Origin: an uncultured Desulfocapsaceae bacterium
Lineage (GTDB): Bacteria > Desulfobacterota > Desulfobulbia > Desulfobulbales > Desulfocapsaceae
NCBI GenBank assembly: GCA_964558875.1
Contig: CAZLGM010000001.1
Coordinates: 5,447-69,446, forward strand
Length of the DNA stretch: 64,000 nucleotides
Direction of reading: 5' to 3'
The stretch's first letter is position 1, and every line of letters begins with the position of its first letter. The notes beneath the pieces are model-generated. The model searched no databases. It was not told the DNA's origin and saw nothing but the letters and a program-made list of their open reading frames with translations. Shown here piece by piece: positions 21,601 through 49,894 of this stretch. Both the position numbers and the translations under genes were made by a program.

Positions 21601-24600
21601 TCCGGAAATTGTAGAATTGGTGATGGTCAGGCTGGAGGTGTCGGAAAAAAATGCAATACCGCCACCATACCCCCCGGCACGGTTTCCGGAGATGGTCGAA
21701 TTGGTAAGAGTTACGTCACCGGATTGACCACCAGAAAAGATTGCCCCGCCGTATCTTGTCGAAATATTATTTGCGATGGTGGAGCCTGTTATAGTCAGGT
21801 TCTCTATGTTTCTAATGGCACCACCATGCCCTGTTGAATAGCCATTCTGCAGGGTCAGGTTCTCCAGGCTGACATCGATTTTATTTGAATTGTTGCCATC
21901 ATCAATATTGAAGATCCGGCTGGAATTCTGAGCATTAATAGTCACCCGGCCATCACCGTCAATGGTAAGATCCTGGGTGATGGTAAACTCACCAAGAGCA
22001 AGATTGATGGTGCCGGAGTCCGTATAACTCTTGGCACTACCGTCGGCAGCCGTATTGAGCTGAGTTGCAAAATGAATGATGCCGTACAACGAAGATGATT
22101 CCGCCAGCTCAATGGCTTCCCGCAATGAAAAGTCTCCTTCACAGTAATCACCATCCGACTCATCCACCAAAGAATCGACAGGTTTGATCTGGGCCTCGTA
22201 ACTCCCCATATCAACACCCTTGCCGTCATCGCGATTGTAGGGGATTCCCCGCTGGTCGGTTGTCAGTCCGTTGGCTATGCCGCTGTTATGGGCAGGAGAA
22301 CCCACCAACAGTGCGTGGGTCCAAGTTGGCCCGCCGTTGTCGGCCAGGGGGGCAAGCTTCGGATCGTCACCAACAGTATTGTTATTGCTGCCGTTAGTGA
22401 TGGAGTGGCCGTCACCTGTTTCAATCAGGGAATATTCAACATCAAGGGTTCCTGTTCCATCGGTATACAGATCATTGCCAAGGTTTCCTGCGCTGTTGTT
22501 ACCGATAATTGTTGAGCTGATGGAGGTGGTGCTGTTGCCGCCGGTATAAATGCCGCCGCCATCGGTTGTGGCTGAATTATGAGAAATTGTTGAGTTGTTG
22601 ATAGTGGCTGCAGTGCCCCAGAGAGATATTGCTCCAGCCCTGAAAGTGTTAGCTGTATTTCCCGAGAAGGTAGAATTGCTGATGTCAGTTGTACCGGATA
22701 CGGCATGCAGGCCGCCGCCATAGCGGGCTTCATTTCCGGAAAGAGTCGAATCGGTGATGGTAATATCGTTTCGAGTATGTATGCCGCCGCCATTATATGC
22801 CGCGAAGCTGCCAGCGATAGTTGAGTTGGTGATGCTTAAGTCTTCGAAGTTCTGGATTGCACCGCCGGAACCTGTGATAAGGCCGGCACTGTTGGCAGAG
22901 CCGTTTTGCAGGATTAAATCATTTAAGGCGACACTGCTGTCGGAACTGTTGTCGCCGTCGTTGATACTGAAAATCCGGCTGCCGGTAGCAGGATTAACAC
23001 CGTCATAGCCGCCGTCGATGGTAATCCGCCCCTGACCATTAATGGTCAGGGATTTGTCGATAACCAGTTGACCAAGGGCGGCATCAAGATTGATCTGTCC
23101 ATTTAAATCCTTATGAAAGTGGATCGTTCCACCCGACGGAGCGTTGGTAATGGCTTCACGCAATGAGTAGTCACCAGCCGAATAGTCGCCGTCGTTTTCA
23201 TCAACCAGAGTATCGACGATGGTGTTGGCCTCCAAGGCACCCATATCGACACCGCCGACATCCCGGACAAAACCGGCTCCCCGCTGGTCATTGTCAAGGT
23301 TGTCGGGGTTGGAGCCGCTGTGCAGGGCCGGGCTTGTGACTTTCAACGAGTGAGTCCGGGTGGGGCCGCCGTTGTCGGCAAGAGGATTGAGAGCCGGGTC
23401 AACATTTACGATGTTACCGTTGGTGCCATTAACAATGCCGTGATTGCCGCCACCGGACTCGATAAGGGAGTTGTTGGCACTGATAGTTGAAGAGGACATC
23501 CAGTTGAGAATATCATGGCCGTTTGCGTCACTGTAGGCCAGATTATCGCCTAATATTGAGGAATTGAGGGTGATGTTGATATCTGAGAGGAGGAGCCCGC
23601 CGCCGTAATAGGCGCTGTTGTTGGCAATGGTTGAATTGTTGATTGTGGCTGTTCCTGTTCCCAAAGCAGAACCTACAACCAGACCACCGCCATATTGGGC
23701 GGAATAGTTGCCGGAGATGGTTGAATTGGAGACTTTAAAGCTGTTGCCGTAGATCGCATACATCCCGCCGCCACCGTATGCTGTGCGGTTATTGGAAACA
23801 GTTGAATTAGCGATACCGATATCACCAAAAAATGCAGTGAGATAGAGCCCGCCGCCGTAGGAATCACCGGCATTATCGTCAATGGTGGAGTTGCTGATAG
23901 TGATTGAACCGGTAATGGCGGAAGCTGCCACACCACCCCCGCTTCCCCCGGTACTGGAAGTGAGGCTGTAAGTAGCACCGTTGCCGGTAATTGTCGAGTC
24001 GCTGATAGTGATTGTTCCCGAATCAGTAATAAGAGCCAGGCCGCCGCCGTCCCCGCCGTAGGCCATATTCTGGGAGATTGTTGTTTCACTGACATTGTTT
24101 CTGCCATAGGAAGAAGCGGCAAAAATGCCGCCGCCGCTTCCTTCCAAGGCGTAATTATAGGTGACGGTTGAACCGCTGATGCTGTTTGAGCCGTAAATTG
24201 TATTGGCAAAGATACCACCGCCGTCTCCGCCACTGGCATAGTTCTGATAAACCGTTACATTGCTGAATGTGTTTGAGCCGTAATTTGTCGAGGCGAAGAC
24301 ACCGCCGCCGTCTCCATCATACGCATAGTTATATCCAAAGGACGTATCGGTCACCGTCAGGCCGCTGGAACTGTTTCGTGAATAAATACCGCCGCCGCTC
24401 TCGGCAGCCATGTTGTATGTAACGGTAGAATCGCTGACGGTCAATATTTCACTGTTATAGATGGCACCACCGCTTTCACCGGCTCCTGCCGCGTTGCCTC
24501 CCGTCAAGCTCAGACCGGTGAGGGTGACCTCCGAATCGGTGGTGGGGTCGGTGTCATCGATCGAGAACAGGCGGCTGCTGTATTGGCCATCAATGGTGAT

Positions 24601-27387
24601 ACGATTATCGCCATTAATAGACAGGCTCTTGTCAATGGTGAATTCACCCAAGACCATATCGATGTCGCCGGAGAGGCCGGGCTTAAAAAGAATCCATTCG
24701 CCGTTGCCGGCCTGGTCGATGGCCTCGCGAAGGGAATAATTACCGGCAGAATAGTTGCCGTCATTTTCATCGGCCAGGGTGTCGACGATATGGAAAAATT
24801 CCACAGCCCCCATATCGGTGCCGGCGCCGGCCATACGAACAAAACCTGCTCCCCGCTGGTCGTTGGCCAGTCCATTGGCCGCGCCGCTATCGATGACAGG
24901 GCTGCCGGCCATGAGTGCATGGGTCAAGGTCGGGCCGCCGTTATCGCCTAGTGGCAGCAGACCGGGGTCCTGGCCGACGATATTGCCTAAAGAATCGCCG
25001 CTGGTGGCGCTGTCATCAACGTTGTGACCTGTAGCCGTTTGAATCAGGGAATGGGCAGCCTCCAGATTGCTTGTGTTGTCGCTTACATCCTCACTATTGG
25101 TGTCAATGGAAATGTTGTCGCTGATGATACTGGAGCTGATACTGCTGCTGCTGTTACCACCAACGGAGGCATGGGAATAAAAACCGCCGCCGCTGAGTTT
25201 TGCCGTATTAAAAGCTATGGTTGAGTTGGTGATTGAACTGGTCGAGTCACTCAAACCGGCCAGATGGACACCACCGCCGGTGTCGGTTGTTGACTCATTG
25301 CCGGAAATGGTGGAGTTGACAATAGAATGAACGCTGTGAGTGGAGTTCCAGATCAGAACACCGCCGCCCATATCCACCGAAGTGTTACCGGAAATGGTGG
25401 AGTCGGTGATTGATACCGAGCCGTATCGCACATCATTGAACAGACCGCCTCCGGCCCCGTCACTGGTATTGCCCGAGATGGTGGATCGGGTGATACTGGT
25501 ATGGGCGTCGCCAAACCGGGTATAGGTGAACAGACCGCCACCTTCAATGGTGGCATGGTTATTCCTGATAATGGAGTCGGTTATCAGGGTGGTGCCGCCA
25601 TAGGCCGCTCTTGTGCGGATGCCGCCGCCGCGGCCGCCCTGATTATTCTGGATGACGGAGTTTGAGATAGTCAGATTTTCATTGCTTGAAATAGCGCCAC
25701 CGCCACCGGTGCCGGCGTTTCCTGCCTGCAGGGTCAAACCGGCTATTGTCACGTTGATCAGGCTTTGCGGCATGTTACTGTAGTCATCGATATTAAAAAT
25801 TCGGCTGCCTGTTCCGGGTACGCCGGTATAGCCGCCATCAATGGTAATTCGACTGTCGCCGTCGATCCTGATATGGTCGGTGATTTCAATCTCACCGAGA
25901 CTCAAGGCGATGGTGCCGGATAAGCCGGCAGCAAAGGTGACATCGACCAAGCCTTCGTCAGCGTTGGCAAGTCCAACGGCCTCACGCAGAGAAAGATCTC
26001 CAGCACCATAATCGCCGTCATTCTCATCCACCAATGTGTCGACCACCAGCCGATGGGATTCATAGCTGCCCATATCAACGGTTGCCACGGTTCTGATATA
26101 CCCCCGGCCGCGCTGGTCCGTATTCAGGTTGTCCGGGTTACTGCCGGCATTCACCGCCGGAGAACCGGCCAGCAGTGCATGCGTCCATGTTGAACCGCCG
26201 TTGTCTGCTAATGGTGCGAGACGGGGATCGATACCGATGAGATTGTTGTTATCCTGTCCACTGCCGGTGCCAGGGTTGTTATCAACGAGATGTCCGCCGG
26301 TTGAACCGATCAGCGAGAAGGTGACATGTAAGGGGCTGTCTTCCGCATTGAGCAGGTCAGCGCCAGTAGCCCCGGCACTGTTGTTTGCAATAATCGTTGA
26401 ACAGATGGTGGTTGGATTGTTGTCAAAAGTGTGCAGCGAAACCCCGCCGCCGCTGGCACGGGAGATGTTTTCAACTATGGTGGAGTTAACGATTTCAGTG
26501 GAGACAGAACCGTTGGTTATTACCAGGAGTCCACCGCCGTAATCCCCCTGATTGTCAGAGATGGTTGACTGCTGAACAGAGATGGAGCCGCCGTCGTTGA
26601 TGTCGATAAACAGCCCGCCGCCGCTGCCATAGGCCCAGTTGCCCGAAATGGTCGAGTTGGCAACTGTTGCCGAACCGCCGGCACCGTTGTCGATATAGAT
26701 TCCGCCGCCATTGCCGAATAAGGCGGTGTCCCTGGTCCTGTTGTCCGAGATGGTGGAGTTGTCGATAACGGTTGAACCGCCATCGACTTTTGAATAGAGG
26801 CCGCCGCCGCAATCACCTGCCGTATTGGCTGTAATGGTGGAATTGGAGAGGCTCAGGTTTTCCCGGCTGAAGATTGCGCCGCCGCTTGCCGTTCCCGAGT
26901 CGCCGTTCTGCAGCCTCAGGCCGCTTAGGCTGACGTCGCTGTTGACAAGGTCATCGCCATCATTGATGTTAAAGATCCGGCTGTTGTTCTGCGCGTCGAT
27001 GGTTACTCGATTGTCACCGTCAATGGAGAGGCTCTGAGCGATTGTAAATTGTCCGCCCCAGGGAGCGGTTGTCGCATCATAAGGGGTCATCCGGATGGTG
27101 CCGGAGGTGACCCAGGACTTGGCAAGGCCATCTTCGCTGATATTGAGTTTATCATCAAAGAAAATCCATTCACCGTCCATCGACGCTCTAATTGCTTCGC
27201 GCAGTGAATAATCACCCAGGCTGTCATCGGCGTCATTCTCATCCACCAGGGTGTCGACGATATGGGAATATTCGATTGCGCCAATATCCACCCCTGCAAG
27301 ACCCACATCCCGTGAAAATCCATCGCCCCGTTGATCATTGAGCAGTCCGTTGGCAACGCCGCCACCAATTGCCATGCTGTTGTTCAT
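15634..27387 (-). CDS. giant repetitive parallel beta-helix surface/secreted protein B, portion downstream of the in-frame TAA (9 modules + unique C-terminal domain)
   Basis: A 3,917-aa ORF. It has nine repeats of the xSLREAI head (CSLREA-domain-like), PbH1/Pmp-like GGAI...NSTISGN beta-helix turns, and the tail NIVGxDPxLxPLADNGGPTxTHAL..GSPA...DQRG..R....DMGAYE (choice-of-anchor-Q-like). The reading frame is continuous with ORF 27445-31392 across the TAA. Confidence 0.9.
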   Translation of the reverse strand: MNNSMAIGGGVANGLLNDQRGDGFSRDVGLAGVDIGAIEYSHIVDTLVDENDADDSLGDYSLREAIRASMDGEWIFFDDKLNISEDGLAKSWVTSGTIRMTPYDATTAPWGGQFTIAQSLSIDGDNRVTIDAQNNSRIFNINDGDDLVNSDVSLSGLRLQNGDSGTASGGAIFSRENLSLSNSTITANTAGDCGGGLYSKVDGGSTVIDNSTISDNRTRDTALFGNGGGIYIDNGAGGSATVANSTISGNWAYGSGGGLFIDINDGGSISVQQSTISDNQGDYGGGLLVITNGSVSTEIVNSTIVENISRASGGGVSLHTFDNNPTTICSTIIANNSAGATGADLLNAEDSPLHVTFSLIGSTGGHLVDNNPGTGSGQDNNNLIGIDPRLAPLADNGGSTWTHALLAGSPAVNAGSNPDNLNTDQRGRGYIRTVATVDMGSYESHRLVVDTLVDENDGDYGAGDLSLREAVGLANADEGLVDVTFAAGLSGTIALSLGEIEITDHIRIDGDSRITIDGGYTGVPGTGSRIFNIDDYSNMPQSLINVTIAGLTLQAGNAGTGGGGAISSNENLTISNSVIQNNQGGRGGGIRTRAAYGGTTLITDSIIRNNHATIEGGGLFTYTRFGDAHTSITRSTISGNTSDGAGGGLFNDVRYGSVSITDSTISGNTSVDMGGGVLIWNSTHSVHSIVNSTISGNESTTDTGGGVHLAGLSDSTSSITNSTIAFNTAKLSGGGFYSHASVGGNSSSSISSSIISDNISIDTNSEDVSDNTSNLEAAHSLIQTATGHNVDDSATSGDSLGNIVGQDPGLLPLGDNGGPTLTHALMAGSPVIDSGAANGLANDQRGAGFVRMAGAGTDMGAVEFFHIVDTLADENDGNYSAGNYSLREAIDQAGNGEWILFKPGLSGDIDMVLGEFTIDKSLSINGDNRITIDGQYSSRLFSIDDTDPTTDSEVTLTGLSLTGGNAAGAGESGGAIYNSEILTVSDSTVTYNMAAESGGGIYSRNSSSGLTVTDTSFGYNYAYDGDGGGVFASTNYGSNTFSNVTVYQNYASGGDGGGIFANTIYGSNSISGSTVTYNYALEGSGGGIFAASSYGRNNVSETTISQNMAYGGDGGGLALITDSGTITISDSTITGNGATYSLTSSTGGSGGGVAASAITGSITISNSTIDDNAGDSYGGGLYLTAFFGDIGIANSTVSNNRTAYGGGGMYAIYGNSFKVSNSTISGNYSAQYGGGLVVGSALGTGTATINNSTIANNSAYYGGGLLLSDINITLNSSILGDNLAYSDANGHDILNWMSSSTISANNSLIESGGGNHGIVNGTNGNIVNVDPALNPLADNGGPTRTHSLKVTSPALHSGSNPDNLDNDQRGAGFVRDVGGVDMGALEANTIVDTLVDENDGDYSAGDYSLREAITNAPSGGTIHFHKDLNGQINLDAALGQLVIDKSLTINGQGRITIDGGYDGVNPATGSRIFSINDGDNSSDSSVALNDLILQNGSANSAGLITGSGGAIQNFEDLSITNSTIAGSFAAYNGGGIHTRNDITITDSTLSGNEARYGGGLHAVSGTTDISNSTFSGNTANTFRAGAISLWGTAATINNSTISHNSATTDGGGIYTGGNSTTSISSTIIGNNSAGNLGNDLYTDGTGTLDVEYSLIETGDGHSITNGSNNNTVGDDPKLAPLADNGGPTWTHALLVGSPAHNSGIANGLTTDQRGIPYNRDDGKGVDMGSYEAQIKPVDSLVDESDGDYCEGDFSLREAIELAESSSLYGIIHFATQLNTAADGSAKSYTDSGTINLALGEFTITQDLTIDGDGRVTINAQNSSRIFNIDDGNNSNKIDVSLENLTLQNGYSTGHGGAIRNIENLTITGSTIANNISTRYGGAIFSGGQSGDVTLTNSTISGNRAGGYGGGIAFFSDTSSLTITNSTISGNSNTFYPGGGIFTNGSTTISNSTITGNDGDHYGGGICAFSDLSMQSTIVANNISQYGVGHDLYTTVAGTVTVTHSLIEDRSGHSIAHGTNDNIVGVDPLLGPLADNGGPTWTHALHTGSAALNRGYHPSPAGQFDQRGAGYARDIGGVDIGAYEAQDPTLSTDIVVDSLIDENDGDYSPGNLSLREAIAAGYNNTIFFDPSIHGGTINMTLGAFTVTNEVTINGENQITIDGGYTGTQGTGSRIFNIDDGNDSNKIDVSLENLSLQNGYSTGHGGAVSNMENLTITGSTIANNISTRYGGAIFSGGQSGDVTLTNSTISGNRAGGYGGGIAFFSDTSSLTITNSTISGNSNTFYPGGGIFTNGSTTISNSTITGNDGDHYGGGICAFSDLSMQSTIVANNISQYGVGHDLYTTVAGTVTVTHSLIEDRSGHSIANGTNDNIVGVDPLLGPLADNGGPTWTHALGNGSVALNSGTDNGLATDQRGQNRTYGGVADIGAYEQQAVVFVSKDVDSLTDEFDGDYSAGNYSLREAIFNSAPGSTINFAAGLTGTINITPFSAANPWAGEFAISKSLTINGDQRVTIDGQNQSRIFKINDGSTNHLRITLNDLTLQNGRAEGKGGGIYSLENITITNTTIHGSSATTDGGGIFAMSSTGINTISNSTISGNTASADGGGIFLMTSSGTNRIINSTIAGNTAVNDGGGLFSWVPSTLPGTTTISSTIIGNNSAGGIGNDLRTSGAGTFAANHSLIQSDDGGHTVVDSATSGDGFGNIVDDNPLLAPLADNGGFTLTHALLAGSPALNAGANPLNLQNDQRGNPFQRDDGSGVDMGAYEAQSLNLVVDNLVDENDDDYGTGDFSLREAIGLANINPEADSISFAVLLNTAADGSPKSYTGTGTINMALDDFSITDDVTIDGDGRVTIDGQKDSRIFTIDDGNSANSEVTLNNLTLKKGKVSGDGGAIYNTETLTINNTTISKSEASGKGGGIRNQDTGILTITGSTIKKNSADTSGGGISNKGASVTIDGDSVISVNNAKNGGGIHNTGTGATLTITDSTVKDNIAIEDGGGLFNKASATITGSTFKDNAAYMNGGGIRNSGAGANLTITDSTVKNNSAMEDGGGLYNKATATITGSTFSENWTSTGKGGGVHNRGSGAITITDSTFKKNTADASGGGISNIGTGVVTITDSTLKKNTAGKNGGGLFNKATATVNSSILSGNHADKDGGGVSNTDSGILTVSNSTLSGNSAGRDGGGIANSGTATINNSTVAENSATAGRGGGLFQVNGDATLNSTIVGNNTALAGADVFHSGGTLNADHSLIEDPNGHTIANGTNDNIVGVDPGLRPLADNGGSTRTHALMGSSPALHSGSNPDALANDQRGAGFNRDVGGVDMGAWEGNHLVDTLVDENDGDFSAGDYSLREAIANATDKGTILFHPDLDGPINLDPVLGELVIDKNLTIDGNDKITIDGGDNNRIFNVDDTSGTTQSTVLLAGLILQNGSSGNDGGAILNRENLTISASTVSYSYASGDGGGVFNSGTITITGSTVSENNAKYSGGGIANTGIATISQSTISNNSAKYNFTAASDSHGGGINNSGTVTIDSSTVSNNTAHDFGGGINNSGTATITASTISGNTSTRSGGGIFTYSGTLTVQNSTISGNETTNSDGGGIKSFSGITSIKNSTIGDNRSRYNGGGVVLGSFATMDIVSSIIGNNTSDTAGNDLFHEPGGTLSVDHSLIESDDGGHAVPDSGVSGDGLGNIVGADPGLGPLADNGGPTQTHVLYIGSPALNSGSNPDGLTTDQRGEARDDGTGVDMGAFEDPTGQGIDPNPGEPGGETVPMGTDPGAGDDARPTDPWWLASIYEDAEAFIDFVGKQYSSWPLFFAELEVFYTDSVNILADFLTDMESRYSETLLFWIEEFIPIFGDDPLFKPILLEMGVLLGNDSDILQTPETSGTLISINGQSDLDWYQGINERLKRHPAFESDVDKLLGGILG
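20221..20875 (-). repeat. copy 1 of a near-identical intragenic segmental duplication of about 655 bp (1,044-bp period)
   Basis: It aligns base-for-base with 21265-21919. A core of about 400 bp (about 20356-20760) looks identical. Confidence 0.85.
21265..21919 (-). repeat. copy 2 of the near-identical intragenic segmental duplication
   Basis: The protein blocks IFNIDDGNNSNKIDVSLENLTLQNGYSTGHGGA... and IFNIDDGNDSNKIDVSLENLSLQNGYSTGHGGA... are almost identical over about 215 aa. The antisense ORFs 20328-20534 and 21372-21578 differ at 1 of 68 residues. Confidence 0.85.
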
Positions 27388-27444
27388 CAGGGCATGGGTC
27401 AGGGTCGGGCCGCCGTTATCGGCCAGCGGCCGCAGATATGGGTT

Positions 27445-30400
27445 TTAGCCGACGATATTGCCGAGCCCGTCTCCGCTGGTGGCACTGTCGGCGACACCAT
27501 GCCCATTGAGGGTACTGATCAGCGAATGATCGGCGCTGATCTGGCGTAAAGGATCGGCGCTGGAGGCGTCATAGAGATCTTCACTGGTTTCATCAATGGA
27601 AATGTTTGCCCCGATGATGGTGGAGCTGATCCGGCTGGTGCCGTTGTCCGCCAGGACACTGGAATGAATCCCGCCGCCGTGCTGCTTTGATGTATTGTTG
27701 GTGATGGTTGTATTGGTAATCGAGCTGGTCGCTCCGCTGCTGTTGACAGTGACACCCACGCCACCACCGTGTGCGGCGGTTGTTTCATTGCCTGAGATGG
27801 TAGAATTAGTGATTGATATCGTTGCCGTTTCATTGACGTTTACGGAGATACCGCCGCCGGAGCCTTTCGATTCATTTGCCGAAAGTGTTGAGCCGGCAAC
27901 AGAAAAGCTACTGGTATCATAGGCCCTGGAGAATACGCCTCCACCGGCACCATCAGCGATGTTATCCGAAACGGTGGAGCTTAAAAGAGTGGTAACATCA
28001 TCACCATGGGTCCGCACATAGACACCGCCGCCTTTTCCGTTGGCAGCCTCGTTATCGGATATGGTTGAGTTGTCTATCGTGCTACTCCCTCTCCACGAGT
28101 AGAGAAAGAGGCCGCCGCCGTCACCACCGGCTGAATTATCAGAGATGGTTGAGTTGGAGATTGTTAGTTTCCCATCCACCTGCCGGATATAGACACCACC
28201 GCCGTCAAGTGTCTGTGCCTCATTATCGGTGACGGTTATATTTGAAACGGTCGCTTCGGCTGAACTGCCGAGAATCTTAATCCCGAGTCCGCCGCCGTTA
28301 TTGCCGGCTCTGTTTCGGTAGACGCTGGAGTTGTCGATGGTGATGGTGCCGGAATGATCGGATCGGACATAGCCGCCGCCGAAATTCCAGTTTGCCTCAT
28401 TACGGCTGATGGTGGTATCGGAGATGGTGATTGTTCCCAGATCGCTTCTTATATAGAGCCCTCCCACTGAGCCGGCTTCATTCAAATCAAAGGTTGAGTT
28501 GGAGATGGTGGTGGTGCCGCTTCCATTTGTGATATGGGCCCCGCCGCCGACAGCTCCTCCGCTTAGTGTATTACCCACAAAATCAGTATCGCTGATAGTG
28601 GTTGCACCGTCAGGGGTCTGAACATAGAGCCCGCCTCCATGACTGGATGAGGTGTTGTAGGAGATGGTGGAGTTGCTGATGGTAACATCGACAGAGTTGC
28701 TGTTTTTAATGAGAATCCCGCCGCCATACAGGGAGTAATGAAAGCTGAAACCGGAATTGATGTTTTTTGTGATGGTGGAATTGGTAATGGTCAGGTTTTC
28801 ACGGCTGTAGATAGCCCCGCCACCGAAATAGCCGTTGCCGGATCCGCCGCCACCATAATAATAATAAGCATTGCCGTTCTGCAGAGTCAGACCGGAGAGG
28901 GTGACATTCTGATTAACACTGTCATCACCGCCGGCCGATGTGTCGTCGATATTGAATATCCGGCTGCCGGTCCCGGCTGTGCCGGTATAACCGCCGTCTA
29001 TGGTGATCCTGCCATCACCGTTGATGGTCAGATCATGGGCTATTTCAAATTGACCTCCCCAGGGAGCCGTGGTTGCATCGTATTGGGTCATGTTTATGGT
29101 GCTGCCGGAAACAAGACTGGAGGCAAAATTGATGGTGTCGGCGATATATGGTGATTTGGCCAGCTCAATGGCTTCCCTGAGTGAGAGATCACCAGTACTG
29201 TAGTCGGTGTCGAATTCATCAACCAGATAATCGACTTCCAGACTCAACACTGGATTCTGATCTTCATAGGCACCAATATCAACACCAGCACCGTCATCAC
29301 GGTTAAACCCTGCGCCCCGCTGATCAAATTGACCGGCAGGCGCTGCATGGAAGCCGTTATTTAATGCCGGACTGCCGGCCAGCAGCGCGTGGGTCCAGGT
29401 GGGACCGCCATTGTCGGCCAGGTCATCCAGCAGCGGATCAACATCGATAATGTTGCCCGTACCGGTATCGATGGTGAAGCCACTGTTTGTTTCAATCAAC
29501 GAGTAATCGACATTGAGTGTTCCGCCTGTTTTAAAAATATCATCGTCATTTCCTCCTCCGCTGTTATTGCCGACAATGGTGGAGCTGATTGTTGTGGTTG
29601 TCCCACTATCAGCACGTATAAAAACGCCGCCACCGTCATCATAAGTAGCCTTGTTGCCGGAGATGGTCGAATTGTTGACGCTGGTAGTGCTATACCGAGT
29701 ATAAACGCCGCCACCTCGATCCCGGGCTGTGTTTCCGGAGATGGTGGAATTGTTGATGGTGGTGTCCCCATAAGAAGCACTAACGCCGCCGCCTCTATTC
29801 CAAGTCGTGTTTCCGGAGATCGTCGAATTGTTAATGGTGGTTGTGCTGTTCCAAGCACCTAGGCCGCCACCCAGCCCAGCCGTGTTTCCGGAGATGGTGG
29901 AATTGTTGATGATGGTGGTGCCCCTGCCGGCATAAACGCCGCCGCCGCTCCAAGCCGTGTTGCCGGAAATGGTGGAATTGTTGATGGTGGTGGTGCCCCA
30001 ACCGGCATAAATGCCGCCGCCGTTCCAAATAGTAGCCGTGCTGCCTGAGATAGTCGTATTATTGATGGTCAGGTTCTCACGACTGAAAATTGCGCCTCCG
30101 GTATGTTCTACTGAACTATCACTGTTGCCTTTCTGCAGGGTCAGGTCGTTGAGAGTTATATCGAGATTGGTGGTATCATCACTATCGTTGATATTGAATA
30201 TTCTGGTGCCGCTACCGAAATTACCTGTAACATAGCCGCCATCAATGATGATCCTCCCTTCGCCGTTGATGGTCAGCGAATCTGTAATCAGCAACTCTGT
30301 ACCGGCCAGGCTGATCGTTGAGATGGTGTCTGCAAAGGTGATGACATCGGCTCCGGGATTCGCGTTAGCCAGCTTAATGGCTTCCCGTAATGTAAGGTTC

Positions 30401-31392
30401 CCCGCACTGTAATTACCATCATCCGTATCACCCGGGTTATCAACCTTATAATCGGCCAACAGTGAAATGGTCCGGGTGCTGCTGAAATCGAGTCTGGACG
30501 CAACAGTGCCGTTGCCATATTCCAGCTCCCAGTCGCCGCCGGTTTCGGTTGAGCCGGTATCATCAGTCGATGCGGCCACATCGGCTTGGGTGAGTTTGGC
30601 TAAGCGGTTGACAAAGGCTTTGCCGGAATCACTCTCGGCTATCTTGCAGCCGTAGAGATTTATATCACCATCTTCAGATAGAGCACTTGTCCAGCCCTGG
30701 ATCAGTTCCTCGTTCTTTTCAAGAGAGGCGGAATCCACCACATCGGAACCCAGAACAAAATGACCGTCACCGCCATGGGAGAAAACATGAACAGCGCCAA
30801 TATCTTCCCGTCCTTCCAGGGTTTCACTGATCAGATCAAGGCCGGAGTCGGTGGATTGAACCACAATCACTTCAATCTCTTCCTCTTCCAACGTCTCGAT
30901 GATCGCTTCCTTATCAGAAAGTGAGCCTGAAACAAAGGCGATCTCGTTTCTCTCTTCCTCTTCCCTGTCGCCACCACTCAACTGTTCATCATCGGATGAC
31001 GAATCTGACTCGGATGATTCGGTTTCTGCTGCAGAGTCCTGTTCGTCAGCCTGATCGGTTGATTCGTCAGAGCTGCTTTGCTCACTGTTTTCGTTTGATT
31101 CGGTGGTGTTGTCCGATGAATTATTGCTGTCTTGTGCGGCCTGATCAGATCCAGAGGAATTGTCAGAAGATGAAGGGGTCCTGTTCCCTTCTTGGGGTGT
31201 GTTTTCCGGTTCGGAGGCGGGATCGGGTTCGGAGCTGGAGTTTTGCTTGTCTGTTTCTTTCTGCTGTTCAGCTATCGGTTCAGACTCAACAGGTGTTTTG
31301 TCACCATCAGTGGTGGTATCTCCTGTGGTATCGCTTTCGCCGGGACCGGCGGCGTCAAACAGGATTCGGTCTTCCAGTGCGTATATAGCCAT
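27445..31392 (-). CDS. giant protein B, N-terminal portion (leader, acidic low-complexity tract, DUF4347-like domain, 2 beta-helix modules), ending at an in-frame TAA
   Basis: It starts MAIYALEDRILFDAAGPG with GGAGG 7 nt upstream. A Ser/Asp/Glu-rich tract of about 150 aa follows. The DUF4347-like block reads VHVFSHGGDGHFVLG...INLYGCKIAESDSGKAFVNRLAKLTQADVAAS...GGDWELEY. It ends ...GDGLGNIVG-TAA in the middle of the module tail motif. Confidence 0.9.
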   Translation of the reverse strand: MAIYALEDRILFDAAGPGESDTTGDTTTDGDKTPVESEPIAEQQKETDKQNSSSEPDPASEPENTPQEGNRTPSSSDNSSGSDQAAQDSNNSSDNTTESNENSEQSSSDESTDQADEQDSAAETESSESDSSSDDEQLSGGDREEEERNEIAFVSGSLSDKEAIIETLEEEEIEVIVVQSTDSGLDLISETLEGREDIGAVHVFSHGGDGHFVLGSDVVDSASLEKNEELIQGWTSALSEDGDINLYGCKIAESDSGKAFVNRLAKLTQADVAASTDDTGSTETGGDWELEYGNGTVASRLDFSSTRTISLLADYKVDNPGDTDDGNYSAGNLTLREAIKLANANPGADVITFADTISTISLAGTELLITDSLTINGEGRIIIDGGYVTGNFGSGTRIFNINDSDDTTNLDITLNDLTLQKGNSDSSVEHTGGAIFSRENLTINNTTISGSTATIWNGGGIYAGWGTTTINNSTISGNTAWSGGGVYAGRGTTIINNSTISGNTAGLGGGLGAWNSTTTINNSTISGNTTWNRGGGVSASYGDTTINNSTISGNTARDRGGGVYTRYSTTSVNNSTISGNKATYDDGGGVFIRADSGTTTTISSTIVGNNSGGGNDDDIFKTGGTLNVDYSLIETNSGFTIDTGTGNIIDVDPLLDDLADNGGPTWTHALLAGSPALNNGFHAAPAGQFDQRGAGFNRDDGAGVDIGAYEDQNPVLSLEVDYLVDEFDTDYSTGDLSLREAIELAKSPYIADTINFASSLVSGSTINMTQYDATTAPWGGQFEIAHDLTINGDGRITIDGGYTGTAGTGSRIFNIDDTSAGGDDSVNQNVTLSGLTLQNGNAYYYYGGGGSGNGYFGGGAIYSRENLTITNSTITKNINSGFSFHYSLYGGGILIKNSNSVDVTISNSTISYNTSSSHGGGLYVQTPDGATTISDTDFVGNTLSGGAVGGGAHITNGSGTTTISNSTFDLNEAGSVGGLYIRSDLGTITISDTTISRNEANWNFGGGYVRSDHSGTITIDNSSVYRNRAGNNGGGLGIKILGSSAEATVSNITVTDNEAQTLDGGGVYIRQVDGKLTISNSTISDNSAGGDGGGLFLYSWRGSSTIDNSTISDNEAANGKGGGVYVRTHGDDVTTLLSSTVSDNIADGAGGGVFSRAYDTSSFSVAGSTLSANESKGSGGGISVNVNETATISITNSTISGNETTAAHGGGVGVTVNSSGATSSITNTTITNNTSKQHGGGIHSSVLADNGTSRISSTIIGANISIDETSEDLYDASSADPLRQISADHSLISTLNGHGVADSATSGDGLGNIVG

Positions 31393-31524: not shown

Positions 31525-34500
31525 TCAACCCAATATCCCACCCAACAGCTTATCAACCTCAGACTCAAAAGCGGGATGCTTCTTCAACCGTTGGTTGATG
31601 CCCTGGTACCAGTCCAGATCAGCCCGGCCATCGATACTGATCAGGGTTTCACCGGTATCAGATGTATGCTGAACATTCGATCCATCGCCGAGCAAGAGTC
31701 CCATTTCCAGTAAAATGGGCTCAAAGAGCGGATCATGTTCGAAGATGGGGATCAGCTCCTCTAGCCAGAAGAGTCGGGTTTCACCGTAGCGTACTTCAAG
31801 GTCAGCCAGGAAATCCATAAGCACATTGGCGCTGCCGGCGTAATATGCCTCCAGTTCGATAAAGAACGACGGCCATGAGCTATACTCTTTTCCGATAAAG
31901 TCGATAAATTGTTCGCCGTCACTGTAAACGAAGGCGAGCCGCAAAAGTTCGGTCGGAGGGAGTTCCTCCCCGTCTGCGGGAACCGGATCAACCGCAGGAG
32001 CAGGGGGGGTGGGGTCATAACCATTGCCGGTCGGATCCTCAAAGGCACCCATATCGATACCGGAACCGTCATCTCTTGCCTCACCCCGCTGATCGGTAGT
32101 TAAACCGTCGGGATTGGAACCGGAGTTGAGCGCCGGGCTGCCGACATACAACAAGTGCGTTTGGGTGGGACCACCGTTGTTAGCCAGGGGACCGAGCCTG
32201 GGATCAAGGCCGACGATGTTGCCAAGACCGTCGCCGCTGGCAGAACTGTCGGGGATTGCATGACCGGTGTCATCAGACTCGATCAGAGAATGATCAACAT
32301 TCAGGGTACCGCCGGCTTCGTGAAAAAGATCGTTTCCTTCGATGGCGGCTGTATTGTCGCCTATGATGGTGGAGACGATATCCGTCGTTCCATATTTGCT
32401 TAGAAAGACGCCACCGCCATTGCCATAGATACCGGTTGTATTATTGGCTATGGTTGAATTCTTGATAGTGGTTGTTCCGTAAGAGACCTCAATGCCGCCG
32501 CCGCCACCATAGGTGAGCCAGTTACCGGAAATAGTGGAGTTTTGAATGGTGAGGGTTCCTCTGGTGGTAATGCCTCCACCACCCTCTTCAGCACTATTAC
32601 CGGAGATAGTGGAATCCGTTATTGTCGCTGTCCCGGAATAAGAATTACTGATACCGCCGCCGTTTTCTTCTATTGACTGGTTGCCGGAGATGGTGGAACC
32701 GTCCACTGTGAGCGTTCCATAACTATTATTAATACCACCACCGTTATATCTGGCAGAGTTATCCGAAATCGTCGAGTTGTTGATGGTGGTCATGCCACTG
32801 GTATTAATACCACCACCAGATTCGTTGGCATCGTTTTCCGAGATGGTTGACTCGCTGATGGTCAGTGTTCCACTGTTGTGGATACCGCCGCCGGCGTTGT
32901 ACTCAGCGGAATTATTACTGATGGTCGACTGGCTGATGATAGCTGTCCCGGAATAAGAATTACTGATGCCGCCGCCGTAATACTTGGCTTTATTTCCCGA
33001 GACGGTTGAGTTGGTGACGGTAACTGTTCCGGAGTTGAAAATACCGCCGCCGTCACCATAGGCGTAACTGGCCGAGACGGTAGAACCGGAGATGGTCAGG
33101 TTTTCCCTGTTGATTACGGCGCCCCCGTTTGCCCATGAAGCATAGCCGTTCTGCATGGTCAATCCGGCCAGGGTGACGGCTCTTTGAACATCCGGATCTC
33201 CGTCATCGACATTGAATATCCGGTTATTGTCACCGCCATCAATGGTGATCCGGTTATCGCCGTTAATGATAATACCACGATTTATGGTGAACTCACCGTT
33301 GGCAGGATCAATGTTAATTGTGCCGGTGTCGCCGATAAAGTTTTTGGGCCCGGGAAGACCGGGGACAGCATCCGGAAGATCATTTAGATCATCGGCAAAG
33401 ACGATTTTGTCGCCATACTCGGCAAAACCAATGGCTTCGCGCAGGGAAAGATCACCGACACCGTAATCGGTATCATTCTCATCCACCAGGTTGTCTACAA
33501 CATAGGCGGTCCCTTCAAAGGCGCCCATATCGGCCTGTCCATCCCTGACTCTGTCGTAGTTCGGCCCCCGCTGATCAAATGGAAGCCCGTCAGGATTGGA
33601 GCCTTTGTCGATGGCCGGACTGCTGGAGAGCAGAGCGTGGGTCTGGGTGGGGCCGCCGTTATCGGCCAGTTCATCAAGCTTGGCCTCTTGGTCTAAGATA
33701 TTATCATTGTCTATAGGTCCCCCGGGTGGAGTCGTGTTGTCAACCTGGTGTCCGGCCGACGTTTGGATCAATGAAAACTCGGCATTGATGTTGCCAGCCA
33801 CATCCCAGAGGTCATCAAAATTTACAGCAGAGCTGTTCTGACCGATAATCGTGGAACGGAGTGTGGTTGTTCCTGCTAATGAGTAAGTAACTGCTCCTCC
33901 ACCCTGGCCTGTTGCCGAGTTATCAGCAATGGTTGAATTTGCTATGGTGGTTGTCGCGCTTCCACCAAATGTCATGGCTACCAGACCACCGCCATGGGCA
34001 AAATAAGCGGGGTGGGTGTTATCTGAGATGGTGGAGTTATTTGAGATAGTGGAGTTGGAAATAGTAACTGTACCGTTCCAGTTATAACTATAGAGACCAC
34101 CGCCAAAAGCAGAATCACCGCTGGTGGAGTTGCCTGAGATGGTGGAGTTCTCAATACTGATTGTGCCGTAACCGGTATAGATTATCGCACCGCCGCCGTG
34201 GGCGTCATCTCCGGCAGTGGAGTTGCCTGAGATAGTTGAGGTTTGAATACCAACTTGACCGCGATTGCTAAAGATCATCCCACCACCACCGTGACTGTCT
34301 TCTCCACCGGTGGAGTTATTCGAGATGGTGGAGTCTTCGATGGTGGTAGTACCTGATGAACTGTAAGCCCAGACACCGCCGCCGCTGGCGTCATCTCCGG
34401 CAGTGGAGTTGTTTGAAATTGTGGAGTTACTGATTGTTGTTGTGCCGGAGTCGGTAGAGATGTACAGACCGCCGCCGTCAGCGTTCTTTCCGCCAGTTGA

Positions 34501-35049
34501 ATTATCCGAGATCATGGAGTTTTCAATGCTCAGAGTACCTCTCTCAGTCATCATCCAGACACCGCCACCCTCTGCACTATCTCCAGCAGTGGAGTTATCC
34601 GAGATGGTGGAGTCTTCAATGGTGGTGGTACCTGACGAGTGATAGATCCAGATACCGCCGCCTCGGGCATCTTCTCCTTCTGTGGTGTTGCCCGAGACAG
34701 TGGAGTTCTCAATGGTGAAAGTGCCGGAATAGAGAGAACTGTTTAAGCCGCCGCCGTCTGCTGCCACCCCGCCGGTGGAGTTATTGGAGATAGTTGAGTC
34801 ACTGACTGTGGTTGTTCCGGAGCCGACAAAGGTATAGACCCCGCCGCCGTGAGCTTCATATCCCTCTGTTGAATTGCCTGAAACGGTAGAGTTCAGCAGA
34901 ACGATTGTGCCGGAATCTGTTGAACCATACAGTCCGCCGCCATAACCATAATCTGCCGTTGTCCGGTTAGCTGAAATGGTGGAGTTCTCAATCCTGAGGG
35001 TACCGTCGAGATTTCTGGAATAGAGACCGCCGCCTCGGTCGGTAGCCAT
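31525..35049 (-). CDS. giant protein A, portion downstream of the in-frame TAG (rest of module 5, one more module, unique C-terminal domain)
   Basis: A 1,174-aa ORF. It has beta-helix repeats (NSTISNNSTAGDDA.GGG), one LSLREAI module, and a C-terminal domain homologous to that of protein B. The frame is continuous with ORF 35131-43320 across the TAG. Confidence 0.9.
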   Translation of the reverse strand: MATDRGGGLYSRNLDGTLRIENSTISANRTTADYGYGGGLYGSTDSGTIVLLNSTVSGNSTEGYEAHGGGVYTFVGSGTTTVSDSTISNNSTGGVAADGGGLNSSLYSGTFTIENSTVSGNTTEGEDARGGGIWIYHSSGTTTIEDSTISDNSTAGDSAEGGGVWMMTERGTLSIENSMISDNSTGGKNADGGGLYISTDSGTTTISNSTISNNSTAGDDASGGGVWAYSSSGTTTIEDSTISNNSTGGEDSHGGGGMIFSNRGQVGIQTSTISGNSTAGDDAHGGGAIIYTGYGTISIENSTISGNSTSGDSAFGGGLYSYNWNGTVTISNSTISNNSTISDNTHPAYFAHGGGLVAMTFGGSATTTIANSTIADNSATGQGGGAVTYSLAGTTTLRSTIIGQNSSAVNFDDLWDVAGNINAEFSLIQTSAGHQVDNTTPPGGPIDNDNILDQEAKLDELADNGGPTQTHALLSSSPAIDKGSNPDGLPFDQRGPNYDRVRDGQADMGAFEGTAYVVDNLVDENDTDYGVGDLSLREAIGFAEYGDKIVFADDLNDLPDAVPGLPGPKNFIGDTGTINIDPANGEFTINRGIIINGDNRITIDGGDNNRIFNVDDGDPDVQRAVTLAGLTMQNGYASWANGGAVINRENLTISGSTVSASYAYGDGGGIFNSGTVTVTNSTVSGNKAKYYGGGISNSYSGTAIISQSTISNNSAEYNAGGGIHNSGTLTISESTISENDANESGGGINTSGMTTINNSTISDNSARYNGGGINNSYGTLTVDGSTISGNQSIEENGGGISNSYSGTATITDSTISGNSAEEGGGGITTRGTLTIQNSTISGNWLTYGGGGGIEVSYGTTTIKNSTIANNTTGIYGNGGGVFLSKYGTTDIVSTIIGDNTAAIEGNDLFHEAGGTLNVDHSLIESDDTGHAIPDSSASGDGLGNIVGLDPRLGPLANNGGPTQTHLLYVGSPALNSGSNPDGLTTDQRGEARDDGSGIDMGAFEDPTGNGYDPTPPAPAVDPVPADGEELPPTELLRLAFVYSDGEQFIDFIGKEYSSWPSFFIELEAYYAGSANVLMDFLADLEVRYGETRLFWLEELIPIFEHDPLFEPILLEMGLLLGDGSNVQHTSDTGETLISIDGRADLDWYQGINQRLKKHPAFESEVDKLLGGILG

Positions 35050-35130
35050 ACTGGTGGTGATTGTACTGTCGATCAGGTGCAGGTTCTCGCGGCTTAAAAC
35101 AGCGCCGCCGTCGCCTGCAGCATTGCCATT

Positions 35131-38100
35131 CTACATCCTCAAGCCGCTTAACCGCACATCCGAATTAAAACTGTTGTCACTGTCATCGATATTGAAAATC
35201 CGGCTGCCGCTGCCAGGGTCGACACCGTCATAGCCGCCGTCAATGGTTATTCGTCCCTCGCCTTCAATGATCAGATGTCCTGTAATGGCCAATTCACCCA
35301 GGGTCAAATTGATGGTGCCGGTATCGCCGATAAAGTTCTTGCCGCCGGGAGCCCCATCAGGCGCATCGTTGAGATCATCGGCAAACATGATTTTATCACC
35401 GGCCATGGCCTGGCCGATGGCTTCACGCAGGGAGAAATCACCATGACCGTGATCGCCTTCATTGGCGGCTTCATCCACCAGGTTATCAACAATCCAGGCA
35501 GTCCCCTCAAAGGCGCCCATGTCGGTCTGCACCCCCTGGGTTCGCTGATAGTTCGGTCCCCGTTGGTCAAAGCCAAGCCCGCTGGGATTTGAGCCGCTGT
35601 TGCTGGCCGGGCTGCCTGCAAGCAGAGCATGGGTCAAGGTAGGTCCGCCGTTATCGGCCAGTACGTCGAGCAAGGGATCCTGACCGATGATGTTATTGCG
35701 GTCAAAATCACCGCTGCCTGTGGACGGATCGTTATCCACCTGATGACCATCCGCTGTCTGGATTAACGAGTATTCGACGCTTAAGGGATTGCCGGCCCCC
35801 AAGTCGGCAAGATCATTGCCCGTTCCGGTTGCAGAGTTGTTGCCGATAATGGTGGATTTGATCGAGGTTGCGGAACCTTCCCCATCAAGAGCAGCGCCGC
35901 CGCCGTCACTGTCGGCTCCTGTGGTAGAGTTGTGGGCAATGGTGGAGTTTTCGATACTGGTTATGCCGTCATCATATGTACGGGCATACAGACCACCGCC
36001 ATGGGCAGAGTCTCCGGCTGTGGAGTTGCCGGAGATTGTGGCGTTGGATACTTTGGCAACTCCTCCATAATTGTTCATCCATATACCACCACCACTGGCC
36101 TTGTCTCCACCAGTAGAATTACCCGAAACGGTAGCGTTTTCAACAGTGAGAGTGCCGCTACCCACAACCGCCGTCAGACCGCCGCCAAAACTATAATTGC
36201 CAGTGGTCGTGTTATCCGCGATAGTTGTGTTTGAAATGGTGGCAATACCATCAGCAGATATAACAAGAGCGCCACCCCCGGCAGCATAGCTTCCGGCGGT
36301 GGAGTTGTTTGAAATTGTCGAATTGTTGATACTGACTATGTTGTCATCAGTAAAAGCTATCAGGCCGCCACCGTGAGCATAATCCCCTGTTGTGGAATTA
36401 TCCGATATGGTCGAGTTGTCGATTGTAACTGTGCCAACGTCGGAATACACCATCAGGCCGCCGCCGAAACTGTAGACATCCGCCGTGGAATTACCGGTGA
36501 TGGTGGCGTTTGAGACTGTTGTCCTGCCGTAGTAGCTCTCGATGTAGAGACCGCCGCCATGAGCATAAAGACCGCCCGTGGAGTTGTCTGAGACGGTGAG
36601 GTCTGAAATCGAAATGGTGCCGTGATATGATGCAACAAAGACACCGCCACCGTAACCATAATCACCAGCAGTTGAGTTGTTTGAGATGGTGGAATTTTTA
36701 ATGGTGATGGTGCCGTATTCCGTCCCCAGGGACAGACCGCCGCCGGTGGCTTCATAACCAGCAGTTGAGTTATTGCTGATGGTGGAGTTTTCGATGGTGA
36801 TGTTGCCATAGATGGTGTAGGCGCTTACACCGCCGCCGTAAGCCTGGTCTCCGGTGGTTCTGTTGCCTGTGATGGTACAGTCAGAGATAGTCAGACTCTC
36901 CTTGCTGTAGATTGCCCCGCCGGGTCCGGCAGCAACACCATTCTGTAGTGTCATGCCGGCCAGATGGACGTCGATATCCGGGGTACCGGGTGCGGAGTTG
37001 CCGTCGTCAATCAGGAAGATCCGGCTGCTCCAGCGAGCGTCGATACCGATTCGGCCATCACCGTCAATGATGAGATTCTTATCAATCTCAAATTGGCCCA
37101 GAGCGTTATCCATATTGATGGTGCCGGTGTTGCCAATCCAGTTTTTACCGCCGGGCGCACCATCATCCGCATTATTGAGATTGCCTGCAAAGATGATCTT
37201 ATCACCATAGTCAGCATTAAAGATGGCCTCGCGCAGGGTGTAGTCACCGACGCCATAATCACCATCCAGTTCATCCACCAGAGAGTCGACCACATGGGTA
37301 CGAAAATATTCAATGGCGCCGATATCGGCCTGGCCGTCCTTCTCCCGCTGATAGTTGGGTCCGCGCTGATCGTACTGGAGCGTATTTGGGTTGGCGCCGG
37401 CGTTGTAGGCAAGGCTGCCGGCCAAAAGGGCGTGGGTCAAGGTGGGACCGCCATTATCGGCCAGCGAATCAAGCATGAAGTCTTCATCGATAATATTGTT
37501 CTGGTCCGTACCGCCGGTACCAGTTCCCTGGTTATTATCGACCAGGTGACCATCCATTGTTTTAATCAGTGAATATTCGACGTTAAAAACACCGCCTGCT
37601 TCCAGGAGATCATTGCCCAAAATACCTGCCCGGTTGTTAGCAATGATGGTTGAAATCATGTCGGTTGTGCCGCCGGATGTGGTGACAAACAGACCGCCGC
37701 CATAATAGCCGCCAACGTTTTCGGCAATGGTTGAGTTGGCAATTTCAGCACTACCCGAACTGGTGTTCAGATAGACGCCGCCGCCGAAATAGTCTGCTCT
37801 ATTGCCCGAGATGGTTGAGTTGCTGATAGCAGTTGTTCCGCTAAGAATATGGGTGCCTGGAGGTGGGCCGCCAGGAGGTGTGGGGCTGGCAGCAGTTATC
37901 GCAAAAACACCGCCGCCTTGTGCGAAGGCTGTGTTCTCCGAGAGAGTGGATTGATAGATTGTTGTCGTGCCTGCGAGGGCCCTTGAAAAAATCCCGCCTC
38001 CGGAATAACCAGCATGATTTCCGGAGATCGTTGTGCGGTTGATATCAACTATACTGCCCTGGTTCAATAAACCAGGTTCAGAGGCCTCGTTATAGACAAA

Positions 38101-43314: not shown

Positions 43315-43704
43315 AACCATCCTCCTGAAAGCAAACCTGGAGTTCTTTATTAGCGGATTTTCAGCCCTACTATTTAAAACGAGGTGTAACTGCTACTCCG
43401 TCCTAATGCCCTGTAATGACAGCCAGACATACCTGCAGTCAATGTACAACAAACCGTCTGTAAATGCGAGGAATACAACGAAAAAACAGTTTCAGATGAT
43501 CCTACTGTAGATCTGATTCCATCATGGAGACAGCAATGATCTGTGTTGCTAGGTGGGCGGCGCGGCAATCCACAGGATCATTGCGCTCGTTTAGCTTCCT
43601 CGCGACGACTTAATACCTTTCTGACATTGCTGGGAGTAACACGACGAAGCAGGTTAACCAACACTCCAATCTCCTTAAATAAATGCTTCGGTGAAAGAAA
43701 ATGG

Positions 43705-47642: not shown

Positions 47643-47722
47643 CAGTGTTTTGATGAGTATGGTTGTCATCGTTTTGTGTGAGGCTAAACAGAAAAATATT
47701 TTCCATTTTTCAGGAACGTTTC

Positions 47723-49180: not shown

Positions 49181-49698
49181 AACAGATGACCATCCGGTTT
49201 ATGCTGATTCCTTTGTGCTGTTTGTTTCTGAGTTCATGCGCGGCCAATAAGGACAGGTGGCTTCTTATGGGCATTGATCTGAAAACGGAGATGGGCCTCA
49301 GACCAAACGCGATTGAGAGTCTCGATAGATGTCTGAAAATCAAAAAAAAGATGTCGCCTGCAAAATTTACCAAGCTCTTTGGCCGGGAAGCTTCCCTGGT
49401 GAAGAAGAACCCGACAACCGCTGACTGGGGTAAACTCGGATGTCTTGGCTTTCATTCATCGGCAACCGTTTCCCAGGTCCGCAAGGCGGCCACTCTGCTG
49501 CCGACCAAAGGATTACCGGCAGGTGAACAACGGGTTGTAGACCTGTTGCGTGAGCTGTTGAAAAGAAGGGCGACGGAACTGGCTGATTTAAGGAAGTGTA
49601 CGGTTCAACAGCAAAAGGAACGAGCCCGTATAAAACAACTGGAAGAGCAGGTTAAGAAGCTTCAGGAGATTGAGTTGTTGTTGCAAAAGGGCCGCTGA
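49177..49698 (+). CDS. small lipoprotein in the QseG/YfhG position of the three-component system
   Basis: The lipobox is MLIPLCCLFLSSCAAN. The start overlaps the kinase stop (ATGA). It has a C-terminal coiled coil. The assignment rests on position only. Confidence 0.55.
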   Translation: MKQMTIRFMLIPLCCLFLSSCAANKDRWLLMGIDLKTEMGLRPNAIESLDRCLKIKKKMSPAKFTKLFGREASLVKKNPTTADWGKLGCLGFHSSATVSQVRKAATLLPTKGLPAGEQRVVDLLRELLKRRATELADLRKCTVQQQKERARIKQLEEQVKKLQEIELLLQKGR

Positions 49699-49737
49699 AC
49701 CCGTCTAGTTCATGGGAGTTCTATGAGAGGATAAAAG

Positions 49738-49831
49738 AGATCGCCGCGGTCGCTGACGCTCCCTCGCGATGACCAAAGCACTATCAGTCTTTGCGAGCGT
49801 AGCGAAGCAGGTAAGCGACAGACTCCGATCT
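49738..49831 (+). repeat. dispersed intergenic repeat (about 90 nt, internal hairpin), full copy
   Basis: GAGATCGCCGCGGTCGCTGACGCTCCCTCGCGATGAC...TTTGCGAGCGTAGCGAAGCAGGTAAGCGACAGACTCCGATCT is close to the reverse complement of 53701-53790. Confidence 0.7.
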
Positions 49832-49894
49832 CTGTGGTCATTTTGTCATTAACTAGTTGGAAGAAAATAATCACTTTTTTACAAGTACAGAGTC

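Follow-up and report, generated by a model that had tools for sequence, protein, structure and literature searches.

Why two neighboring giant genes of one bacterium should each carry a single in-frame stop codon is the question raised by the locus described here. The window, by which we mean the whole stretch of 64,000 nucleotides (nt) that was analyzed, comes from an uncultured Desulfocapsaceae bacterium related to sulfate reducers (assembly GCA_964558875.1, contig CAZLGM010000001.1, positions 5,447 to 69,446 of the forward strand), and coordinates are given on the window. The two genes, denoted gene A and gene B, are encoded on the minus strand. An earlier note on this DNA had drawn attention to an in-frame TAA in gene B and had named a very recent nonsense mutation, a base-call error, and a leaky or suppressed stop as possible explanations. 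Our analyses suggest, with a probability of roughly 0.75, that two independent and young nonsense mutations have been fixed in one lineage and that genes A and B are very young pseudogenes or split genes. The pattern resembles a commonplace early stage of gene inactivation more than a novel mode of coding.

The TAA (27447..27445, minus strand; context GGC TAA AAC) is codon 1316 of gene B and closes an open reading frame (ORF) at 31392..27445 that comprises 1,315 codons (27448..31392 without the stop). The minus strand at 27480..27400 reads GGC AAT ATC GTC GGC TAA AAC CCA TAT CTG CGG CCG CTG GCC GAT AAC GGC GGC CCG ACC CTG ACC CAT GCC CTG and translates as GNIVG*NPYLRPLADNGGPTLTHAL; with glutamine (Gln) substituted for the stop, the junction would read GNIVG-Q-NPYLRPLADNGGPTLTHALMNNSMAIGGGVANGLLNDQR. 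Beyond the TAA, reading can continue in the same frame over a further 3,936 codons (15634..27444, minus strand), with no second stop and no frameshift, up to a TGA at 15636..15634. The probability that a random frame of the same composition would remain open over 3,936 codons is ~1e-82, and the repeat modules carry on in frame throughout this downstream portion. The minus-strand reading and the long continuation confirm that the TAA splits gene B without a change of frame, and the sister module GNIVGQDPGLLPLGDNGGPTLTHAL that had been cited from the same protein was located at gene B codons 2136-2160. The description of the motif as cut in half holds in part: the module sequence does span the stop, but the curated choice-of-anchor Q model NF041518 begins to match one residue after it. 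The stop is therefore at a domain boundary and not mid-way in the curated domain. The first ATG past the stop (27385..27387, minus strand; codon +20) lies within the choice-of-anchor Q domain and has no Shine-Dalgarno sequence. This agrees with the earlier remark that the first downstream Met lacks a ribosome-binding site; more broadly, no combination of a Shine-Dalgarno sequence with an ATG, GTG, or TTG was found within 100 codons after the stop of either gene.

Gene B comprises 5,252 codons in all (15.8 kb), and its start ATG (31392) is preceded by a good Shine-Dalgarno sequence, GGAGG. The upstream ORF encodes an acidic N-terminal region, a DUF4347 domain, and two CSLREA/beta-helix modules, of which the second is without its choice-of-anchor Q domain; the downstream frame encodes 10 more choice-of-anchor Q modules and a conserved C-terminal domain of 150 amino acids (aa). 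Domain matches comprised DUF4347 (PF14252, E = 2.4e-46), TIGR04214 (E = 1.5e-26), and NF041518 (1 + 10 matches), and beta-helix repeats were also matched in the upstream ORF. Gene B is thus predicted to encode a giant beta-helix repeat protein, either secreted or at the cell surface, with a DUF4347 N-terminus, 11 CSLREA/beta-helix/choice-of-anchor Q modules, and a lineage-specific C-terminal domain. It resembles other DUF4347/CSLREA/choice-of-anchor Q giants in domain content and in its TolC-like and HlyD-like neighbors, and relatives have the same N-terminal MAIYALE motif and C-terminal tail. No experimentally defined function for this family was found in the literature.

Several further features of gene B concern its repeats and their annotation. 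The upstream ORF contains a tandem array at 29647-30028 with a period of ~78 nt (26 aa, beta-helix rungs of the TTINNSTISGNT type) whose copy number differs among assemblies and sets the length of the upstream ORF at 1,315 aa or 1,341 aa. Gene calls from the Joint Genome Institute (JGI) start gene B at a Leu and skip the first 631 codons, which yields a 684-aa product. In the downstream portion, the modules at 20216-20878 and 21260-21922 are 1,044 nt apart and 96.4% identical over 663 nt, which indicates that a module was recently duplicated or underwent gene conversion. A number of metagenome contigs break off beside this module pair, at ~21686-21706.

Gene A (43320..31525, minus strand; 3,931 codons) is a tandem paralogue of gene B and bears out the earlier statement that the paralogue carries a similar lesion. 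It has exactly one in-frame stop, a TAG at 35133..35131 (minus strand; codon 2730) in the motif LSGLRM*NGNA. The ORF upstream of the TAG (35134..43320, minus strand) comprises 2,729 codons and includes a DUF4347 N-terminus, and the frame downstream of it (31525..35130, minus strand) comprises 1,201 codons and a TGA, with the first ATG at codon +28 and again without a Shine-Dalgarno sequence. The two genes are 64% identical in their N-terminal region and 65% identical in their C-terminal domain. Taken together, genes A and B show one lesion each and no frameshift across 27.5 kb.

The C-terminal domain that genes A and B have in common is encoded at 15637-16086 and 31528-31977. Only four clusters among 1.84 billion representative proteins match it, two of which are the window's own products, and in this nearly unique domain genes A and B differ from other DUF4347/choice-of-anchor Q giants. 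Its extreme tail (..H-P/V-AFES-D/E-x-D-K/R-LL) is also present in the intact 2,905-aa relative introduced below. Within the repeat region of gene A, a contig assembled by the European Nucleotide Archive (ENA; L001) is shorter than the window by 96 nt (32 codons, in frame) at 38308-38404, and an array with a 96-nt period is located nearby at 40083-40461. The protein cluster of gene A includes 2,695-aa members and a variant 2,729-aa form. The 1,174-aa product called from the downstream frame of gene A has an N213Y replacement in one ENA contig, which is the sole amino-acid polymorphism detected downstream of either stop.

Exact-protein look-ups recovered the 1,315-aa product of gene B, its 684-aa shorter gene call, and the 3,917-aa downstream product on contigs from several sources, comprising ENA assemblies of BioSamples SAMN10231893 and SAMN10231913 and JGI metagenomes 3300009008, 3300007510, 3300013118, and 3300009128. 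A look through the literature for metadata on the samples gave none. The TAA of gene B and the TAG of gene A were both present in contigs L001 and L003-L007. At least five to seven metagenome assemblies contributed contigs with these stops; the contigs were 99.9-100% identical to the window, and 99.95-100% identical outside of repeat arrays. Apart from the N213Y variant of gene A, all mismatches between assemblies fell in tandem-repeat arrays and represent differences in copy number or register. One allele with an extra 78-nt repeat unit, and hence a 1,341-aa upstream ORF, ends at the same TAA. The population sampled is clonal, and no single-nucleotide polymorphism in gene B, from which selection after the appearance of the stop might have been gauged, was detected among the assemblies. 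The 90% identity clusters of the window's four products contained no read-through version.

This comparison with population data, which had been proposed as a check, refutes a base-call error, since the same TAA and TAG are found in separately assembled contigs of several samples. A broader artefact, such as a chimeric join of repeat modules, might be entertained given that the gene is highly repetitive and that assemblies break or vary at its arrays. Yet the surroundings of the stop are identical in separate JGI and ENA pipeline assemblies, and the arrays that vary between assemblies (29647-30028 and ~38300-38400) are located away from it. Furthermore, nucleotide identity between the junction module and its nearest paralogous module is as low as 63%, which means that repeat collapse cannot have created the junction module. 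We regard the probability that the TAA is a sequencing or assembly artefact as close to negligible.

Relatives that have the same cassette lack such stops. A Desulfocapsaceae metagenome-assembled genome (MAG; L009/L002) with the same cassette encodes an uninterrupted giant of 4,526 aa, and a second relative (L015) encodes an uninterrupted giant of 2,905 aa whose N-terminal MAIYALE.. and C-terminal ..AFESEIDRLL motifs are those of the window genes. Two further frames, of at least 1,244 aa (L014) and at least 813 aa (L008), are open to the ends of their contigs. No internal stop was identified in any of these giants. A 1:1 orthologous module could not be identified in the related MAG, where the best matches were ~45% identical, and orthology at the level of the site is therefore impossible to establish with this genome. 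A scan of genomes for relatives recovered this one MAG only, while scans of metagenomes with the N-terminus and with the DUF4347 core found no relatives. Protein searches over the junction recovered the same population together with relatives of 40% identity or less (matches up to ~1.75x the query length).

The ratio of nonsynonymous to synonymous substitution (dN/dS) between genes A and B was 0.15 for the C-terminal 150 aa, which lie downstream of both stops, and 0.11 for the DUF4347 core, which lies upstream of both. The C-terminal value, which is close to that of the core, indicates that the full-length chain spent most of its history since the duplication under purifying selection and that its downstream part was translated during most of that history. 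If the downstream frame of gene B has been neutral since its interruption, the absence of a second stop limits the age of the TAA to about 1% divergence or less; counting frameshifting indels would lower this limit further, although the indel rate is an assumption on our part. Of the options that had been raised for the TAA, a recent nonsense mutation is accordingly the best supported, given intact relatives, the lack of a second downstream lesion, and purifying selection on the C-terminal domain.

The identity of the ancestral codon differs in clarity between the two genes. The position of the stop in gene A is occupied by Gln in 15 of 17 other modules (13 CAG and 2 CAA), which makes a CAG to TAG change secure. 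The equivalent position of the gene B stop is variable: when the other 16 modules of the two genes are compared, it is V in six, Q in three, D in two, and Y, E, L, I, or A in one each. The claim that sister modules encode Gln at this site is thus true of three modules of the 16. The closest sister module does encode Gln, but with CAG (24972..24970, minus strand; gene B codon 2141) and not CAA. A change from CAA to TAA, as had been put forward, is plausible and most likely the single step involved, although residues differ among modules at this site and CAG is the codon of the nearest one. Other possible one-step ancestors are, formally, GAA, TAC/TAT, TTA, AAA, and TCA, and three of the residues that these would specify (E, Y, and L) occur at the site in other modules.

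To evaluate the Gln-type positions of both stops, we counted every one-step route by which a codon of either gene could become a stop; of these 2,134 routes, 174 pass through Gln (all by C-to-T change). The probability that two random nonsense mutations both strike Gln is 0.007 at uniform rates and 0.02-0.12 when a 2- to 10-fold bias toward transitions or GC-to-AT changes is allowed. C-to-T and G-to-A transitions are the chief source of nonsense pseudogenes in Salmonella (PMC9122581). Two Gln strikes fit this known dominance and represent a weak signal that does not demand a Gln-specific mechanism.

Under the interpretation of young nonsense mutations, a single substitution, most likely C-to-T in a CAA Gln codon, would have generated the TAA at codon 1316 of gene B, and a separate CAG to TAG change would have struck codon 2730 of gene A. 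Ribosomes would terminate at these stops, and the released N-terminal fragments, 1,315 and 2,729 aa in length, would be without the conserved C-terminal domain. Since no ribosome-binding site or start codon is nearby, essentially no translation of the remaining 3,936 and 1,201 codons would be expected. Untranslated message in a co-transcribed cassette is subject to Rho-dependent polarity, and the remaining 11.8 kb of gene B message could be exposed to this effect. Basal near-cognate readthrough at UAA and UAG typically inserts Gln. Such decoding by tRNA-Gln would regenerate the presumed original residue at both sites, and traces of full-length protein are therefore conceivable. The loss of both genes might reflect a brief period of relaxed selection on the whole system or selection to shed costly or exposed surface proteins.

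Reassignment of stop codons to Gln is known from TAG-to-Gln recoded phages and from nuclear codes in which TAA and TAG specify Gln. The stops described here resemble these systems in that they are located where Gln would be expected, but differ in that 17 of the 27 other, ordinary ORFs in the window end in TAA or TAG (12 TAA, 5 TAG, and 10 TGA); a reassignment was rejected on the basis of this terminator usage. Genes A and B are the only cases of an in-frame stop in the window, and no other gene there was found to be split by a single stop: an HlyD pair (13917/13942) is in one frame but is separated by two stops, and a candidate at 52828 is an ordinary gene junction. Recoding of the gene B stop as pyrrolysine or selenocysteine was rejected, since UAA is read by neither system; pyl genes were not identified among the window's annotated ORFs. 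Programmed readthrough was likewise rejected, as no stimulatory structure or context was identified and the stops are confined to one clonal population and absent from relatives. Specifically, folding of the 120 nt that follow each stop does not surpass that of shuffled sequence (z = -0.55 and +0.63), and the base 3' of each stop is A.

Several observations weigh against two simple inactivating mutations. Descent of the gene B site from a Gln codon is uncertain, the presence of both stops at Gln-type positions is a weak hint of something specific to Gln, and a single lesion in each otherwise intact gene fits tolerated stops as well as very recent decay. Moreover, the assemblies are probably from one site or project, such that the stops can be regarded as fixed in that population only. 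A rival possibility is that the stops are tolerated or maintained, with a Gln-inserting suppressor encoded elsewhere in the genome or appreciable near-cognate readthrough providing a reduced amount of full-length protein and the stops acting, for two costly giant proteins, as expression dimmers or as reversible switches between CAA/CAG and TAA/TAG. A tRNA with the anticodon UUA would read UAA and UAG alike, and the locus has one of each at Gln-type positions, a coincidence with a probability of 0.007-0.12 depending on the mutation model. Both downstream frames are also perfectly intact, all assemblies carry both lesions, and precedents have been published, namely short-lived in-frame stops in prokaryotic genes subject to purifying selection (PMC7918605) and UAG readthrough with Gln insertion in Salmonella pseudogenes (PMC9122581). 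Nevertheless, more ORFs in the window end in TAA than in any other stop codon and some end in TAG, such that an efficient ochre suppressor would be harmful, and no tRNA gene was identified in the window or in ~40 kb of extra flanking sequence (L016, L019), which together represent roughly 100 kb around the site. Of the three stop codons, UAA is also the least prone to leak. Stops of this kind are absent from all other genes in the window, no stimulatory structure follows either stop, and the giant genes of relatives are free of them; the A that follows each stop also differs from the C enriched at readthrough sites (PMC9122581). When the insecure Gln ancestry of the gene B site is included, we consider tolerated or maintained stops unlikely.

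A more specific proposal, in which the Gln-position stops would be a maintained throttle or switch for two costly giant surface proteins, decoded at a low level as Gln through near-cognate tRNA-Gln or an ochre-type suppressor encoded elsewhere in the genome, and revertible by single transitions as a point-mutation on/off switch in a natural population, is speculative and appears improbable. Even less probable is a functional split, in which the 1,315-aa product and a separately initiated downstream product would be two working proteins. This would accord with the position of the stop one residue before a curated domain boundary, with the existence of family members of ~1,200-2,900 aa, and with gene callers that list the pieces as separate proteins. 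True starts in the window, however, have GGAGG-like sites, and none is paired with a start codon within the 100 codons surveyed; initiation at the first ATG would also remove the LADNGGPT core of the domain. Finally, the C-terminal domain is missing from the N-terminal piece and DUF4347 from the downstream piece, whereas intact relatives have both on one chain.

The interrupted genes have counterparts among published systems. Nonsense 'pseudo-pseudogenes' of bacteria have been described in which low-level readthrough of UAG inserts Gln (Feng et al., 2022; PMC9122581). Those genes are similar to genes A and B in having a single in-frame stop, probably from a C-to-T change, in an otherwise intact ORF. 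They differ in that the Salmonella pseudogene stops that are read through are mostly UAG, with UAA rare among them, whereas one of the two stops described here is UAA; in that C is enriched on both sides of the stops there, whereas A follows each stop here; and in that they are from Salmonella, whereas gene B is a 15.8 kb gene of an uncultured environmental bacterium. Short-lived in-frame stops have also been described in prokaryotic genes, with a CAG/TAG site as a worked example (Belinky et al., 2021; PMC7918605). The similarity in this case is that in-frame stops last on the timescale of population polymorphism; the difference is that those stops are shared between species with dN/dS below 1, whereas the stops in genes A and B are confined to one clonal population.

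Genes A and B are thus a fresh instance of nonsense-interrupted bacterial genes that persist at population timescales. With respect to annotation, the public ORFs of 2,729, 1,174, 1,315, and 3,917 aa represent two interrupted giant genes and not four proteins. The locus provides a clean natural case of very early inactivation, with tandem paralogues that each carry a single nonsense mutation across a whole clonal environmental population. If switching or readthrough were nevertheless to prove true, it would be a useful field case for evaluating in-frame stops as dead ends versus regulators of expression.

Genes A and B lie in an operon-like cassette that runs from a TolC/OEP-family protein through gene A and then gene B to a periplasmic adaptor, an HlyD-like protein, an M50-like metalloprotease, and a second HlyD-like protein. 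The TolC/OEP-family outer-membrane protein (43853..45508, minus strand) is directly upstream of gene A, and this synteny is kept in relatives. The downstream cassette (10268..14805, minus strand) encodes the adaptor (287 aa), an HlyD-like protein (460 aa), the M50-like intramembrane metalloprotease (290 aa), and another HlyD-like protein (390 aa), and these four genes are found in the same order after the intact giant of 2,905 aa in L015. OEP and HlyD-like genes are present at the locus, but no ATP-binding cassette (ABC) transporter, as would be expected for a canonical type I secretion substrate, was identified in the window; for this reason, we refer to the cassette as secretion-like and not as a proven type I system. 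Flanking genes are ~80% identical at the nucleotide level to those of a Desulfocapsaceae MAG with the same synteny, and the window therefore represents chromosomal DNA of a related uncultured bacterium. Terminator-like or promoter-like sites between the genes were not identified above the level expected by chance.

Minor features were noted on both sides of the giant genes. Gene B and the adaptor gene are separated by 830 nt, in which there is an ORF of 162 aa (15124-15612, plus strand) that has no family match; it is called as a gene by ENA pipelines and may be spurious. Within the cassette (12535-14805, minus strand), the 287-aa adaptor and 460-aa HlyD-like ORFs are in the same frame and are separated by 8 codons that include a TAA and a TGA. 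Each has its own adaptor domains, and they look like two ordinary genes, although the 460-aa gene lacks an obvious Shine-Dalgarno sequence. Regulators of the two-component and sigma-54 types lie on the flanks of the locus. On the upstream side of the OEP gene are a DUF4915/TIGR03032 and TPR protein (45721-47196, minus strand) and a set comprising a histidine kinase, a 173-aa protein, and a sigma-54 response regulator (47663-51235, plus strand). Their synteny is kept in the related MAG (L009) and suggests that they may form a conserved regulatory unit of the giant-protein cassette.

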